The translations under genes were made by a program, and so were the position numbers. The notes below the pieces were generated by a model, which saw only the letters and a program-made list of their open reading frames with translations, did not search any database and was not told where the DNA came from. Shown here piece by piece: positions 1 through 32,754 of a DNA stretch of 43,173 nt. The stretch is from IMG/VR virus record IMGVR_UViG_2844449076_000006; one strand, given 5' to 3'. Within the stretch, counting starts at the first letter, position 1. Each line of letters begins with the position of its first letter. Source of the DNA: a virus (lineage: Duplodnaviria > Heunggongvirae > Uroviricota > Caudoviricetes).

Positions 1-519
1 TTATTGGTTAGCTGAAACAGAAACAGGGGGATTGGTGGGTGTCACCTGTTGCGTCTGCTCCTGAATGACAGGCTTTATGTCATCAGGAACAACCGGCGCG
101 ACGTTGCCTTTATGCTGGCATGGCAGTAACAAGCCGTTAAACAGATCGGCAGGCAGCGGGTCCGGCAGGTTGATATCGCAATGCGCAACACCACTCCAGA
201 ACACACTCATGTGTTCGCCAGGTTTCACCCCAGCCAGATAAACATTGCCGTCATCATCGACAAGGCCCACTGTCTGCTCGTTATCATTTTTTACTTCTGC
301 GCCAAACGGAGGATGGCTGCCGTCTTGTAAACGCAGCACCGCCATCGCTTTTTGACCACTGATGACGGCAAATTTGCGGTAGCCAATCGCCCCTTCAGTT
401 AGCGTGGCTTGTACCACCGACTGGGTTGCTTCGGCGTTTTCCGGCAGTTTGTTGAGGTCGATATACGCCTGATTGCGGTAATAGTTATTGACGTCAGAAA
501 CGACGGCTTTACCAAACAT
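1..519 (-). pseudogene. Fimbrial usher-like outer-membrane protein, C-terminal fragment; upstream part replaced by IS1
   Basis: 172-aa ORF ending at the window edge with usher C-terminal-domain-like motifs (GAIGYRKF, DGSHPPFGAEV, VGLVDDDGNVYLAG, LLLPC). IS1 end lies 24 bp upstream at 543, so the gene is 5'-truncated. Family assignment from recalled motifs only. Confidence 0.4.
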
Positions 520-557
520 ATTGGTATAAACAGCAGCACCGTGGTAATGACTCCAAC

Positions 558-1061
558 TTATTGATAGTGTTTTATGTTCAGATAATGCCCGATGACTTTG
601 TCATGCAGCTCCACCGATTTTGAGAACGACAGCGACTTCCGTCCCAGCCGTGCCAGGTGCTGCCTCAGATTCAGGTTATGCCGCTCAATTCGCTGCGTAT
701 ATCGCTTGCTGATTACGTGCAGCTTTCCCTTCAGGCGGGATTCATACAGCGGCCAGCCATCCGTCATCCATATCACCACGTCAAAGGGTGACAGCAGGCT
801 CATAAGACGCCCCAGCGTCGCCATAGTGCGTTCACCGAATACGTGCGCAACAACCGTCTTCCGGAGACTGTCATACGCGTAAAACAGCCAGCGCTGGCGC
901 GATTTAGCCCCGACATAGCCCCACTGTTCGTCCATTTCCGCGCAGACGATGACGTCACTGCCCGGCTGTATGCGCGAGGTTACCGACTGCGGCCTGAGTT
1001 TTTTAAGTGACGTAAAATCGTGTTGAGGCCAACGCCCATAATGCGTGCAGTTGCCCGGCAT
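558..1061 (-). CDS. insB: IS1 transposase InsB (made as InsAB' fusion by -1 frameshift)
   Basis: 167-aa [19 protein letters not shown]...NIKHYQ overlapping insA in the -1 frame, the standard IS1 arrangement. Confidence 0.95.
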
Positions 1062-1255
1062 CCAACGCCATTCATGGCCATATCAATGATTTTCTGGTGC
1101 GTACCGGGTTGAGAAGCGGTGTAAGTGAACTGCAGTTGCCATGTTTTACGGCAGTGAGAGCAGAGATAGCGCTGATGTCCGGCAGTGCTTTTGCCGTTAC
1201 GCACCACCCCGTCAGTAGCTGAACAGGAGGGACAGCTGATAGAAACAGAAGCCAC
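980..1255 (-). CDS. insA: IS1 transposase subunit InsA
   Basis: 91-aa [46 protein letters not shown], identical to canonical InsA. Confidence 0.95.
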
Positions 1256-1943
1256 TGGAGCACCTCAAAAACACCATCATACACTAAATCAGTAAGTTGG
1301 CAGCATCACCAGCCTTCTTGAGGCTACCACCTGTTTTCAGGTGTCATTCAGACGTGATTTGCCCCAGATTGGGAAAGCACGCTTTTTTCTCAGCTATCGT
1401 CCTCTTATTTTGCCGTTACATTTCTTTTTGCATTCTAATGATTAATTTACAATAATAATATCGGTAATTATTGAGTAATAATAAATTAATTATTGCAAAT
1501 GTAATTTAATTCCATCTTCGCGTTATATTCCAATCTTTAATCTCCGCATGGAACAAGTTGCATGCGTGACTATATTAAGACGACTTATAACCACCAAAAC
1601 ATTTGCTTTGCAAGCAAAAACAGTGACCATTGACTCTAAGAAAATTCCGATCTATTGTTAGGGTCATCAAAGTTACTTAACAGTATTCCGAAATGAAAAT
1701 ACAAAGCAAGCTAATTGTCTTATTAAACATTATTATTGCATTTATATTATTTGAGCTTTTAGCTCAAAAATTTGGTTTGAGTACATTATTTTAAAGCAAG
1801 ATAAACAATATCGGGCACTCTAGTTTTTATAATTAACAATTAAACGTCCATAAAATGTTATTTACTTTTCTTCGCTATTGTCATATCTTAATATAGTGGC
1901 TTACGCCACTCTACTTTCATCACATTTTGTACGTTTATGTACT

Positions 1944-20961: not shown

Positions 20962-24642
<3,681 letters not shown>

Positions 24643-24668
<26 letters not shown>

Positions 24669-25188
24669 TCAGCAACCCCGGTATCAGTTCATCCAGCGCG
24701 GCTGCTTTGTTCATGGCTTTGATGATATCCCGTTTCAGGAAATCAACATGTCGGTTTTCCAGTTCCGGAAAACGCCGCTGCACCGACAGGGGGATCCCGT
24801 CGAGAATACTGGCAATTTCACCTGCGATCCGCGACAGCACGAAAGTACAGAATGCGGTTTCCACCACTTCAGCGGAGTCTCTGGCATTTTTCAGCTCCTG
24901 TGCGTCGGCCTGCGCACGCGTAAGTCGATGGCGTTCGTACTCAATAGTCCCTGGCTGGAGATCTGTCTCGCTGGCCTGCCGCAGTTCTTCAACTTCCCGG
25001 CGCAGCTTTTCGTTCTCAATTTCAGCATCCCTTTCGGCATACCATCTTATAACGGCGGCAGAGTCATAAAGCACCTCATTACCCTTGCCACCGCCTCGCA
25101 GAACGGGCATTCCCTGTTCCTGCCAGTTCTGAATGGTACGGATACTCGCACCGAAAATGTCAGCCAGCTGCTTTTTGTTGACTTCCAT
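24643..25188 (-). CDS. nu1: Terminase small subunit Nu1
   Basis: 181 aa, MEVNKKQLADIFGASIRTIQNWQEQGMPVLRGGGKGNEVLYDSAAV..., matches lambda gpNu1. Confidence 0.95.
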
Positions 25189-25575
25189 TGTTCATTCCAC
25201 GGACAAAAACAGAGAAAGGAAACGACAGAGGCCAAAAAGCCCGTTTTCAGCACCTGTCGTTTCCTTTCTTTTCAGGGGGTGTTTTAAATAAAAACATTAG
25301 GTTACGGCGAAGAAGAACGGAAACGCCTTAAACCGGAAAATTGTCATAAATAGCGAAAACCCGCGCGCCTTCCGCCCCGTAACCTGTCGGATCGCCGGAA
25401 AGGACCCGCAAAATGATAATAATTATCATCTACATGTCACAACGTGCATCTACGCCATCAAACCACGTCAAATAATCAATTATGACGCAGGTATCGTATT
25501 AATTGATCTGCATCAACTTAACGTAAAAACAACTTCAGACAATACAAATCAGCGACACTGAATACAGGGCAACCT
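25189..25575 (-). other. cos: cos packaging region (cosB-cosN-cosQ equivalent) with a divergent cosN core near 25366-25377
   Basis: Sequence upstream of nu1 matches the lambda left end (CGCGGGTTTTCGCTATTTATGA...GGAAACGACAG...) and, beyond the junction, the lambda right end (CGTAACCTGTCGGATC...ATCAACTTAACGTAAAAACAACTTCAGACAATACAAATCAGCGACACTGAATAC), in reverse complement. Confidence 0.8.
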
Positions 25576-26457: not shown

Positions 26458-27363
26458 CTATATTTCCAGACATCTGTTATCACTTAACCCATTACAAGCC
26501 CGCTGCCGCAGATATTCCCGTGGCGAGCGATAACCCAGCGCACTATGCGGATGCCATTCGTTATAATGCTCGAACGCCTCTGCAAGGTTCTTTGCTGCCG
26601 TTAACCCGTCTGGTTTGGGCATGATACTGATGTAGTCACGCTTTATCGTTTTCACGAAGCTCTCTGCTATTCCGTTACTCTCCGGACTCCGCACCGCCGT
26701 GTTCTTCGGTTCAAGTCCCAACATCCGGGCGAACTGGCGTGTTTCATTAGCCCGGTAGCATGAACCATTATCCGTCAGCCACTCCACTGGAGACGACGGA
26801 AGATCGTTGCCGAAGCGGCGTTCCACCGCTCCCAGCATGACGTCCTGTACTGTTTCACTGTTGAAGCCGCCGGTAGTCACCGCCCAGTGCAGTGCCTCAC
26901 GATCACAGCAGTCCAGCGCGAACGTGACACGCAGTCTCTCTCCGTTATCACAGCAGAACTCGAACCCGTCAGAGCACCATCGCTGATTGCTTTCTTTCAC
27001 GGCCACTCTGCCTGTATGTGCCCGTTTCGATGGCGGTACAGCAGGTTTTCGCTCAAGCAACAGCGCATTCTGGCGCATGATCCGGTAAACACGTTTGGCA
27101 TTGATCGCAGGCATACCATCAAGTTCTGCCTGTCTGCGAAGCAGCGCCCATACCCGACGATAACCATACGTGGGCAGCTCTCCGATAACATGGTGTATAC
27201 GGAGAAGCACATCCGTATCATCAGTGTGACGACTGCGGCGGCCATCCATCCAGTCATCGGTTCGTCTGAGAATGACGTGCAACTGCGCACGCGACACCCG
27301 GAGACAACGGCTGACTAAGCTTACTCCCCATCCCCGGGCAATAAGGGCGCGTGCGCTATCCAC
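26458..27363 (-). CDS. insD: IS2 transposase OrfB (InsD)
   Basis: 301-aa ORF with IS3-family DDE transposase sequence (…WCSDGFEF…LTDNGSCY…[11 protein letters not shown]…). Confidence 0.95.
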
Positions 27364-27686
27364 TTTTTTGCCCGTCCATATTCAACGGCTTCTTTGAGGA
27401 GTTCATTTTCCATCGTTTTCTTGCCGAGCAGGCGCTGGAGTTCTTTAATCTGCTTCATGGCGGCAGCAAGTTCAGAGGCAGGAACAACCTGTTCTCCGGC
27501 GGCGACAGCAGTAAGACTTCCTTCCTGGTATTGCTTACGCCAGAGAAATAACTGGCTGGCTGCTACACCATGTTGCCGGGCAACGAGGGAGACCGTCATC
27601 CCCGGTTCAAAGCTCTGCTGAACAATTGCGATCTTTTCCTGTGTGGTACGCCGTCTGCGTTTCTCCGGCCCTAAGACATCAATCAT
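27321..27686 (-). CDS. insC: IS2 OrfA (InsC) DNA-binding subunit
   Basis: Starts [56 protein letters not shown]; overlaps insD in the -1 frame. Confidence 0.95.
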
Positions 27687-28202
27687 CTGTACTCCAATGA
27701 CTAGTCTAAAAACTAGTATTAAGACTATCACTTATTTAAGTGATACTGGTTGTCTGGAGATTCAGGGGGCCAGTCTAACGATACAGCGCATGATGTGTCA
27801 GGCTTGAATACCTTTATCCTTTAAAAGGGATATCAGTTAAGTTATCCCGTGTAGGGTATAAGCCATTATCAAAGCCACTCTGTAGGGAATGGCTTTTGTG
27901 ATGGCATCACTTACTCTTTACGCTGCTATCCCACTCATCCCGGAATTTTGATGGGTTATTGAAACCTTCTGCTGACATAACAACTCCTTCAATGTTTGGC
28001 TGAAATTGGGATGTCTTTCCATCAGTCCGCCACCACAAAGAATCTTTTTTGCCATAAGGCAGGAGGTTCATCTTTCAGTGGCTGCCGGTGTTATTTCCCC
28101 ACTTACTGGCTTGGGTTGTTTCGTGGTACTGCCGTTAACTGGTGGCCCAGAATAAATTCCGGTTTCATTATCAAGCCCACCCGTAAATGGGCTTTGTAAT
28201 GG

Positions 28203-28460
28203 CTACTTCGCTTTTGCTTCCGCTCGCTTACGCCGGCGCTCTTCTTTCCTCTCGGCTTTTGCCATGTCCATGAATGCCTGCATGATCGAGTTCCGCATCA
28301 TGTAGCTAACAAAGTGATGATTGACACAGCCGTTGAGGCGCAGCTGCTCGCCAAACTCATCCACCGAGGCCAATGCTTCCATCATGCCCTTCTCGCCTTT
28401 CATGAACTCTGAGAAGTCGCGCCCCGCTCTGGAGGCGCATTCAATAACATGATCACTCAT
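28203..28460 (-). CDS. Hypothetical small protein with strongly basic C-terminal tail; translationally coupled to upstream KilA-N gene
   Basis: 85-aa ORF MSDHVIECASRAGRDFSEFMKGEKGMMEALASVDEFGEQL...AKAERKEERRRKRAEAKAK; its start overlaps the upstream stop by 4 nt. No family recognised. Confidence 0.5.
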   Translation of the reverse strand: MSDHVIECASRAGRDFSEFMKGEKGMMEALASVDEFGEQLRLNGCVNHHFVSYMMRNSIMQAFMDMAKAERKEERRRKRAEAKAK

Positions 28461-28954
28461 CCCGGAAGCCCGGGGATCGTAATCTGCAGCTGGTTAGCCA
28501 GGGAGTTAATCTCAGCGACCAACACTGGCTTCGTATAGCGCCATGCTGCCAGCCCTTGTCCGCAGAAGCTCGCCATATCTTTCTTCTGGTCAAATTCATG
28601 ACATTTCATGTTGAGCTGCGCACTTAAGCTGTTGCGATGCTGAAGTTCTCCGGTGAAGTAGTCATCGAGGACTTTATAGGCCGCGTACTTGAACCCGGGG
28701 TTTAACCAAGCCGCATAATCGTAAGCAACAAACTTCCCGCCATATGTTCCACCGTGTACACCGCGCTCAGTAAAAACCACAGATTCGTGGTTTTTCTCCA
28801 GCTCGGCTAAGAACTCTTTGGTCTGCTTGTTTCGCAGGTAGTGGTAAGGCGATTCAGATTCACTTTTACCACTGGCTTTCCACATATCAGTGAGGCAGAT
28901 CATGCCATCTTCACCGATACGAATTGGTTGATTGAAGAGGGTTAATGATTTCAT
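28457..28954 (-). CDS. KilA-N domain protein (moron between Rz and cos)
   Basis: 165-aa ORF; N-terminal region (ICLTDMWKASGK…GGTYGGKFVAYDYAAWLNPGFKYAAYKVL) fits the KilA-N DNA-binding fold pattern as recalled. Confidence 0.6.
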   Translation of the reverse strand: MKSLTLFNQPIRIGEDGMICLTDMWKASGKSESESPYHYLRNKQTKEFLAELEKNHESVVFTERGVHGGTYGGKFVAYDYAAWLNPGFKYAAYKVLDDYFTGELQHRNSLSAQLNMKCHEFDQKKDMASFCGQGLAAWRYTKPVLVAEINSLANQLQITIPGLPG

Positions 28955-30468: not shown

Positions 30469-30568
30469 AAGCTGTGTGACGAAGTAACCACTCTTAACAG
30501 CATAACCAATTTTGGTGATGCTGCCAACTTACTGATTTAGTGTATGATGGTGTTTTTGAGGTGCTCCA

Positions 30569-30844
30569 GTGGCTTCTGTTTCTATCAGCTGTCCCTCCTG
30601 TTCAGCTACTGACGGGGTGGTGCGTAACGGCAAAAGCACTGCCGGACATCAGCGCTATCTCTGCTCTCACTGCCGTAAAACATGGCAACTGCAGTTCACT
30701 TACACCGCTTCTCAACCCGGTACGCACCAGAAAATCATTGATATGGCCATGAATGGCGTTGGATGCCGGGCAACTGCACGCATTATGGGCGTTGGCCTCA
30801 ACACGATTTTACGTCACTTAAAAAACTCAGGCCGCAGTCGGTAA
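30569..30844 (+). CDS. insA: IS1 transposase subunit InsA
   Basis: 91-aa ORF identical to the InsA of copy 1. Confidence 0.95.
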
Positions 30845-31266
30845 CCTCGCGCATACAGCCGGGCAGTGACGTCATCGTCTGCGCGGAAATGGACGAACAG
30901 TGGGGCTATGTCGGGGCTAAATCGCGCCAGCGCTGGCTGTTTTACGCGTATGACAGTCTCCGGAAGACGGTTGTTGCGCACGTATTCGGTGAACGCACTA
31001 TGGCGACGCTGGGGCGTCTTATGAGCCTGCTGTCACCCTTTGACGTGGTGATATGGATGACGGATGGCTGGCCGCTGTATGAATCCCGCCTGAAGGGAAA
31101 GCTGCACGTAATCAGCAAGCGATATACGCAGCGAATTGAGCGGCATAACCTGAATCTGAGGCAGCACCTGGCACGGCTGGGACGGAAGTCGCTGTCGTTC
31201 TCAAAATCGGTGGAGCTGCATGACAAAGTCATCGGGCATTATCTGAACATAAAACACTATCAATAA
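30763..31266 (+). CDS. insB: IS1 transposase InsB
   Basis: 167-aa ORF identical to the InsB of copy 1. Confidence 0.95.
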
Positions 31267-31671
31267 GTTGGAGTCATTACCCCAATTTTTTACGTACGTA
31301 AACCACTAAATGATATTTGCGAGAATGCTACCGAGTATTGAAAACACCACTACAAATACATAAGCAAATCCCAACAAATAACCAACAAATAATTTCCAGT
31401 GTTATTTTTAGCCGGTTTAAATTGAACCTTCAAATTATAGAGCACTTATAAATAACAGCCGTTAATATAAATTGGCTAATAGATTTATTTTTATTCAGTC
31501 AAGAGCCATGAATAGGATTCGATAGAAAAAAGTTCAGATAAAAATAGAGATCTACTTCACAAATCAAACGAGAAACCAAAACTTACATCTTGAAATAATC
31601 ACATTGATTAGATGAATATTTATCGCGCAATGACATCATTTTTTAATAATAGTTCAAAAAAAGGGCTCACG

Positions 31672-32754
31672 ATGAAAAAATTAACAGTGGCAATTTCTGC
31701 TGTAGCTGCATCAGTACTGATGGCGATGTCTGCTCAGGCAGCTGAAATTTATAATAAAGACAGTAACAAGCTGGATCTGTACGGGAAAGTTAATGCTAAG
31801 CACTACTTCTCCTCTAATGATGCAGATGATGGTGATACTACTTATGCCCGTCTTGGCTTCAAAGGTGAAACCCAAATCAACGATCAACTGACTGGTTTCG
31901 GTCAGTGGGAATATGAATTCAAAGGCAACCGCGCTGAATCTCAAGGTTCCTCCAAAGATAAAACCCGTCTTGCCTTCGCTGGCCTGAAATTCGGTGACTA
32001 CGGCTCCATCGATTACGGCCGTAACTACGGTGTAGCATACGACATCGGTGCGTGGACTGACGTCCTGCCAGAATTCGGTGGTGACACTTGGACTCAAACA
32101 GATGTGTTCATGACTGGTCGCACCACTGGTGTTGCAACTTATCGTAACAACGACTTCTTTGGTCTGGTTGATGGTCTGAACTTTGCTGCTCAGTATCAGG
32201 GTAAAAATGACCGCACTGACGTAACTGAAGCTAATGGTGATGGTTTCGGTTTCTCCACTACTTATGAGTATGAAGGATTCGGTGTAGGTGCAACCTATGC
32301 TAAATCTGACCGCACTAATAATCAGGTTATCTACGGTAACAACAGCCTGAATGCATCTGGTCAAAATGCTGAAGTATGGGCAGCTGGTCTGAAATATGAT
32401 GCGAACAACATCTATCTGGCTACCACCTATTCTGAAACCCAGAACATGACTGTTTTTGGTAATAACCATATTGCCAACAAAGCACAAAACTTCGAAGTAG
32501 TTGCACAATATCAGTTCGACTTCGGTCTGCGTCCGTCCGTTGCTTACCTGCAATCTAAAGGAAAAGACTTGGGTGCGTGGGGTGATCAGGACCTGGTTGA
32601 ATATATTGATGTAGGTGCAACCTATTACTTCAACAAAAATATGTCCACTTTTGTTGATTACAAAATCAACCTGATTGATAAGAGCGATTTCACGAAAGCA
32701 TCTGGCGTTGCTACCGATGATATCGTTGCTGTAGGTATGGTTTACCAGTTCTAA
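31672..32754 (+). CDS. nmpC: Phage-encoded general porin, OmpC/OmpF superfamily (NmpC/Lc type), apparently full length
   Basis: Signal peptide [23 protein letters not shown], porin motifs, C-terminal aromatic residue (…VAVGMVYQF); located between Q and the lysis genes on the opposite strand, as nmpC is in DLP12. Start trimmed to MKK. Confidence 0.85.

Follow-up and report, generated by a model that had tools for sequence, protein, structure and literature searches.

A naturally occurring minor allele of the cosN cohesive-end core in a lambda-type cos site

The viral contig analysed here (IMG/VR record IMGVR_UViG_2844449076_000006), the whole 43,173 nucleotides of which we call the window, carries a lambda-type cos site followed by lambda-like terminase, head and tail genes within an integrated prophage remnant riddled with insertion sequences (Table 1). 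The phage map reads along the minus strand of the window. The small terminase Nu1 and the large terminase gpA are each more than 98% identical to their lambda counterparts, and the open reading frames of the head and tail module have lengths that match lambda or the annotation of phage PhiR46_1. On the other side of cos, the genes past the Rha-like regulator run Rz and endolysin, IS1, porin, Q, rusA, an HNH-like gene and ninB; the porin presumably resembles nmpC of DLP12. No replication, immunity or integration genes were found in the window, the early region having been replaced by IS1 and IS21. Because these early genes are absent, the cos site of the window is probably usable only with terminase supplied by a helper. 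The four copies of IS1 in 43 kb suggest a host from an Escherichia/Shigella lineage in which insertion sequences have expanded.

Table 1 Features of the cos site, terminase genes and surrounding prophage in the window.
Feature	Coordinates	Strand	Remarks
Fimbrial usher, C-terminus	1–519		
IS1	543–1311		Beside fimbrial usher fragment
Head and tail module (W, B, C/Nu3, D, E, FI, FII, Z, U, V, G, T, H, M, L, K, I, J, lom, stf, tfa)	2060–22743	−	Assigned by order and ORF length only
A, large terminase/endonuclease	22743–24668	−	641 aa, full length; 4 aa from lambda gpA
Nu1, small terminase	24643–25188	−	181 aa, full length; starts 189 bp past first core base
cosB R1, CTGTCGTTTCCTTTCT	25213–25228	−	Identical to lambda
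cosB R2, inverted copy of the 16-bp R repeat	25254–25269	−	Identical to lambda
cosB R3, small-terminase binding site, AGGCGTTTCCGTTCTT	25313–25328	−	bp 50–65 from the end; identical to lambda
cosN right flank, CGCGGGTTTTCGC	25353–25365	−	Includes CG just 3′ of the predicted bottom-strand nick; identical to lambda
cosN cohesive-end core	25366–25377	−	Base-for-base alignment with annotated lambda/DE3 cos site
cosN left flank, CAGGTTACG	25378–25386	−	Includes CG just 5′ of the predicted top-strand nick; identical to lambda
cosQ heptamer GGGTCCT, packaging termination signal	25401–25407	−	24–30 bp upstream of the nick, as in lambda
IS3-family element	26458–27731		Two overlapping transposase ORFs; 1.1 kb from cos
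Rha-like regulator, truncated	28457–28954		165 aa against a 273-position profile; adjoins IS3-family element
IS1, full	30513–31281		Beside lysis genes
Porin	31612–32754	+	380 aa, Porin_1; between IS1 and the Q antiterminator
IS1 split by IS21-family element	35990–36220 and 38351–38891		Whole, 35990–38891
istA	36322–37494		IS21-family element
istB	37491–38291		IS21-family element
LacY-like permease	39025–40272		Between IS1 copies
IS1	42460–43173		

The cohesive-end core of this cos site departs from that of lambda in one half only. In phage sense the core reads GGGCGGAAGGCG, and the bases at the same place in lambda are GGGCGGCGACCT, set between identical immediate flanks in both reference records used for the comparison (J02459 and the DE3 lambda record, in which the 12 corresponding bases are annotated as ‘cos site’). 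Around the core the minus strand runs CAGGTTACG/GGGCGGAAGGCG/CGCGGGTTTTCGC, and the longer context in phage sense is GGGTCCTTTCCGGCGATCCGACAGGTTACG/GGGCGGAAGGCG/CGCGGGTTTTCGCTATTTATGA. The left half, GGGCGG, is that of lambda; the right half is AAGGCG in place of CGACCT, with bases 7, 8, 9, 10 and 12 changed and C11 kept. An earlier note on this DNA, written from the letters alone, had placed a divergent core in a lambda-type cos at 25,350–25,400, and alignment with J02459 and DE3 bears this out; the lambda core it quoted agrees with J02459. It had counted seven leading bases as conserved and the last five as replaced, but only six are conserved. Its description of the cos region as otherwise lambda-identical holds for the bases immediately beside the core and is too strong for the 387-bp region as a whole, which has an identity of 94.1% with lambda and of 96.6% with other isolated lambdoid phages, with 18 further differences from lambda scattered outside the core. 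Five changes among 12 core positions exceed the background of 4.8% measured against lambda (P = 1.5 × 10^−4) and that of 2.1% measured against PhiR63_1 (P = 3 × 10^−6), and the clustering of changes in the core is not due to chance.

The substituted ends retain the overall composition and predicted pairing strength of the canonical ends. Both the window core and the lambda core have 10 G+C in 12 positions, and the nearest-neighbour ΔG37 of the end duplex is −17.8 kcal/mol in the window versus −18.2 kcal/mol in lambda. Twofold symmetry across 16 bp extends to 8 bp in the window versus 10 in lambda, pairs 3/10 and 6/7 no longer being symmetric and pair 4/9 having become so, and this reduction makes a quantitative drop in cleavage efficiency possible.

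The remainder of cos is preserved. We aligned the site with lambda, PhiR63_1, PhiR70_1 and PhiR46_1 and located each motif exactly. The window retains cosQ, the CG pairs flanking the nicks, GGGCGG and the R3, R2 and R1 repeats at their usual spacing without alteration, giving the arrangement ACG/GGGCGG....../CGCGGG (slashes marking the nick positions) that is also found in lambda. The heptamer GGGTCCT corresponds to cosQ of lambda. As in the window, lambda has cosQ at −30 to −24, ACG before the nick, GGGCGG and CG after the nick, and then R3 at bp 50–65 followed by R2 and R1, with Nu1 starting at bp 191 (bp 190 in the window); the right half of the core is CGACCT in lambda versus AAGGCG in the window. 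The position of R3 agrees with the bp 50–65 reported for lambda (PMC9026076), and cosQ is kept among lambda-like phages (PMC4669245). Integration host factor site I1, between R3 and R2, carries 4–5 substitutions in the window. Two single changes also mark this region: A35C (window 25343), in the interval between cosN and R3, is private to the lineage of the window and common to six other compared loci, and T78C (window 25300), in the R3–R2 interval that holds the integration host factor site, is likewise private to that lineage.

Published work on cosN locates tolerance to base changes in precisely the half that differs here. In lambda, mutations in bp 7–12 have a minimal phenotype and the symmetric changes in the left half are severe, so that G2C costs about 10-fold and C11G nothing (Feiss et al. 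2015, PMC4669245). The explanation given for the asymmetry is that the right half lies close to cosB, at which R3-bound TerS anchors TerL; the CG pairs flanking the nicks are kept; and natural variation occurs in bp 7–12, at 9 and 12 in N15 and phiD326 and at 8, 9 and 11 in Gifsy-1 (PMC4669245). The same study concluded that bp 7–12 are simply free of selection. A passage of PMC12315714 citing Vahanian et al. 2017 gives the mEp213/LLS core as GGGCGGCGCGCT, and a passage of PMC9303873 relaying that survey names as conserved bases 1–4 together with two bases of flank on either side. Like the window, these natural variants (N15/phiD326, Gifsy-1 and mEp213/LLS) change only bp 7–12 and keep the left half and the CG pairs; for lambda TerL they are reported to be neutral in function. 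Unlike the window, which carries five substitutions within an otherwise lambda cosB and terminase, they carry two or three and belong to diverged phages. The published tolerance data likewise concern single or double changes in the right half, as against five in the window, and cleavage efficiency with five simultaneous changes may be quantitatively reduced. Identity of the window core with the N15/phiD326 allele was considered and rejected: the N15-type core has only bp 9 and 12 changed relative to lambda, and the N15 core (NC_001901 starts GGGCGGCGTCCG) shares only G12 of the changed bases with the window. The exact 12-mer GGGCGGAAGGCG or its complement was absent from the searchable literature, where the only matches were unrelated plant and Streptomyces primers, the Vahanian et al. 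2017 survey lying outside that search.

Sequence collections show that the variant core is a recurrent allele. Among 5,426 complete E. coli genomes, a 46-nt probe, for which only a matching core can supply the 28-nt megablast seed, located GGGCGGAAGGCG in 155, at 166 places in all. Of these places 150 are chromosomal and 16 lie on plasmids of about 46 kb; the isolates come from humans, from poultry, pigs, cattle and a mouse, and from soil. A corresponding probe with the canonical core matched 8,153 places in 4,293 genomes and as many as 8 places in a single genome, giving the variant a share of roughly 2% of the lambda-type cos sites in complete E. coli genomes (166 versus 8,153). The chromosomes closest to the window, those of E. 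coli strains 582, ETEC1721, Z1323CEC0019 and APEC E14033, have the identical core. In IMG/VR the core occurs with lambda-identical flanks in 14 contigs, and in 78 once the left-hand requirement is relaxed to ACG; among phage records with a lambda-type left end it was present in 2 of 73 (PhiR46_1 and YDC107_1). Across the GTDB species representatives the lambda-type 32-mer had no matches, and a relaxed 24-mer matched one Escherichia sp. only.

The sequences on either side of the variant core are diverse. Across the 78 IMG/VR contigs, more than 30 different spacer sequences lie between cosQ and cosN, and three kinds of sequence follow on the right, each with its own small terminase. The first, in 43 contigs, joins the core to lambda cosB and lambda Nu1. 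In the second (15 contigs) a different cosB precedes a lambda-like gpA and a hybrid TerS that couples a new N-terminal DNA-binding domain to a lambda-like C-terminus; this N-terminus may resemble that of phage 21 gp1. In the third (4 contigs) a non-lambda cosB is followed by an unrelated TerS of 180 aa. More than 30 spacer haplotypes and three TerS classes imply long persistence and spread by recombination, which is hard to square with a dead site.

These distributions bear directly on whether the divergent core is a mutational lesion, that is, damage in a dead prophage that would abolish cos cleavage or the annealing of ends. The prophage is indeed degraded, with an IS3-family element close to cos, an IS1 beside the lysis genes and its early region replaced, and the lineage to which it belongs has the private changes A35C, T78C and gpA L404R. 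Yet the same five-base change recurs in 155 E. coli genomes, 78 contigs and two phage records amid diverse flanks and three TerS types; every substitution falls in the tolerant half; the terminase genes are intact, and the arginine of L404R is native to other TerL proteins. Both ends of a chromosome are moreover cut from the same cos and would therefore be perfectly complementary and cyclise normally, which confines any concern over annealing to hybrids between alleles. Given an allele shared by this many genomes, contigs and phage records, together with intact essential positions and terminase, the site does not have the marks of an inactivated cos, and we regard a lesion as extremely unlikely. 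The impaired cleavage or annealing that the earlier note had expected is accordingly at odds with an allele that is widespread, altered in the tolerant half only (PMC4669245) and predicted to form complementary ends of unchanged stability. Its picture of a decaying prophage is right about the insertion sequences and the missing early region, which are unrelated to cosN, and the alternative it offered, a distinct cos allele, is the one upheld by identical cores in other phages and genomes. The note had named the same core in other functional lambdoid phages as grounds against its claim; phages with the core were found at the level of sequence, their functional status being that given in GenBank record metadata.

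Some of the carriers are phage-plasmids. PhiR46_1 (PV340565), deposited as a complete genome with E. coli ECOR13 as host, is an N15-like linear phage-plasmid with telL/telR, ParAB and a primase-type RepA, and it has a complete lambda-type set of lysis, terminase, head and tail genes. Its record is arranged from telL to telR, the prophage form, and not from virion ends; our literature search found no publication on its isolation, and among linear phage records none was found to begin at the variant end. The one plasmid of about 46 kb that we examined among the E. coli plasmid matches is of the same kind as PhiR46_1 and has protelomerase genes. PhiR46_1, YDC107_1 and NZ_LR883007 form a family of N15-like elements of about 46 kb with the terminase, head and tail genes and cosB of lambda, not those of N15, and with the AAGGCG cosN; in NZ_LR883007 many genes are frameshifted in the PGAP annotation. 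PhiR46_1 and YDC107_1 resemble the window in their identical cosN core, lambda cosB and gpA proteins 5–6 aa apart from that of the window. They differ in being complete telomere phage-plasmids (telL/telR, ParAB and RepA), in the sequence upstream of cosQ and in a Nu1 allele 13 aa apart, whereas the window element is an integrated lambdoid prophage remnant full of insertion sequences.

A terminase adapted to the variant core would be expected to differ from those that cut the canonical core, and we compared full-length Nu1 and A from 11 phages or prophages with the variant core, 6 with the canonical core and, in addition, PhiR70_1. No gpA or Nu1 residue separates the 11 variant from the 6 canonical loci, and over the 2,446-nt Nu1–A segment there is no fixed nucleotide difference between them. 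The Nu1 of the window is 3 aa from that of lambda and 1 aa from those of several isolated phages, and its gpA is 3–6 residues from those of canonical-core phages. The nearest pair of gpA proteins across alleles is 2 aa apart, and the largest gap inside the variant group is 11. Near-identical gpA across alleles and the lack of co-variation indicate that essentially one enzyme serves both cores. They also weigh against a co-evolved specificity in which the endonuclease has adapted to the variant cosN and acquired a separate nicking preference, a reading for which one could cite the discrete haplotype of five changes and the lack, in the scans made, of alleles two or three steps from lambda. Proteins 2 aa apart nevertheless serve different cores, the allele occurs with three TerS types, and lambda-type terminases are not cosN-specific (PMC4669245), lambda TerL giving equal yields with cosN of lambda and cosN of N15 in the same study; we hold such co-adaptation to be highly improbable.

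The gpA of the window has one unusual residue. Position 404 (codon 23457–23459), within a conserved G-I-D-S-Q-x motif, is arginine, where lambda and all other close relatives except two loci have leucine. Decay of the nuclease was considered as an explanation for L404R and rejected, since arginine is native at this position in the TerL proteins of PhiR12_1, Vibrio phage K279 and Rhodobacter phage RcOceanus, and the change looks benign by this comparison. An assignment of D401 as the catalytic residue of lambda was discarded, since D401 belongs to T4 gp17 in the papers found. No solved structure matching gpA by sequence was found.

The variant is one of several right halves in circulation. PhiR70_1, an isolated phage, has a different core again, GGGCGGAGACCT, with the right half AGACCT. 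Before the same right flank as in the window we observed CAGGCG (4), CAGACG (3), TGACCT (2) and GAGCGT (2), as well as AAGCGT, AAGGCT, CTGACG and CGACCG; the IMG/VR scan patterns fixed bp 1–6, and conservation of the left half is accordingly taken from the literature and not from these scans. CAGGCG and AAGGCT are one-step neighbours of AAGGCG, and the scans made returned no right half two or three steps away from lambda. AAGGCG is the dominant non-canonical right half in the scans and is maximally different from lambda in the free half.

Dominance of the most divergent form invites the thought that the allele, though normal in function, has been kept for its incompatibility: an end of this type paired with a canonical one has 5 mismatches in 12 positions, which would block viable hybrids and cross-annealing with co-resident elements. 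With 2 bp of mismatch between the ends, yield falls about 4-fold (PMC4669245), five mismatches should be far worse, and the canonical cos is very common, with up to 8 places in one genome. Drift in six unconstrained base pairs, with subsequent hitch-hiking and recombination, accounts for the data just as well, however; bp 7–12 are free of selection in the published view (PMC4669245), and one-step neighbours of the allele, CAGGCG and AAGGCT, exist. Selected incompatibility thus seems to us very unlikely. A broader form of the idea would make GGGCGGAAGGCG a second cohesive-end compatibility group in Escherichia lambda-like phages, maintained at low frequency by selection, since its ends would fail to anneal with the canonical ends of the many co-resident lambda-type prophages and cos-bearing satellites, and spreading as a cassette among lambda-type prophages, phages with other TerS proteins and N15-like phage-plasmids; we offer it as a speculation with a small chance of being correct.

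Together these observations favour a working lambda-type cos site with a naturally occurring minor allele of cosN, a reading we consider very probable. On the model of lambda, Nu1 bound at R3, R2 and R1 of cosB would set gpA on cosN, and gpA would make two nicks 12 bp apart, one in the top strand between ACG and GGG and the other in the bottom strand between GGCG and CG, leaving 5′ overhangs of GGGCGGAAGGCG. The five substitutions would then lie in the cosB-proximal bp 7–12, where gpA anchored by R3-bound Nu1 is expected to be insensitive to base changes, and the parts expected to be sensitive to sequence, namely cosQ, the flanking CG pairs, GGGCGG and the spacing from cosN to R3, would be those left unchanged. 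The anatomy of the site, the distribution of the allele and the lack of co-variation are documented here and the tolerance of the right half comes from the literature; the nick positions and the activity of the copy in the window are inferred.

The divergent core is neither a lesion nor a new kind of cos, but a common-enough natural allele of a segment already known to be tolerant. At population scale this agrees with what has been published, namely that the half of the cohesive end next to cosB is free to vary and the rest of cos is fixed. For annotators and for programs that predict phage ends, it follows that GGGCGGCGACCT should not be required when a lambda-type cos is called, and a divergent cosN core should not count as evidence of a defective prophage. 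The allele could also be used, as a natural test, to find how many mismatches between cohesive ends still permit cyclisation.
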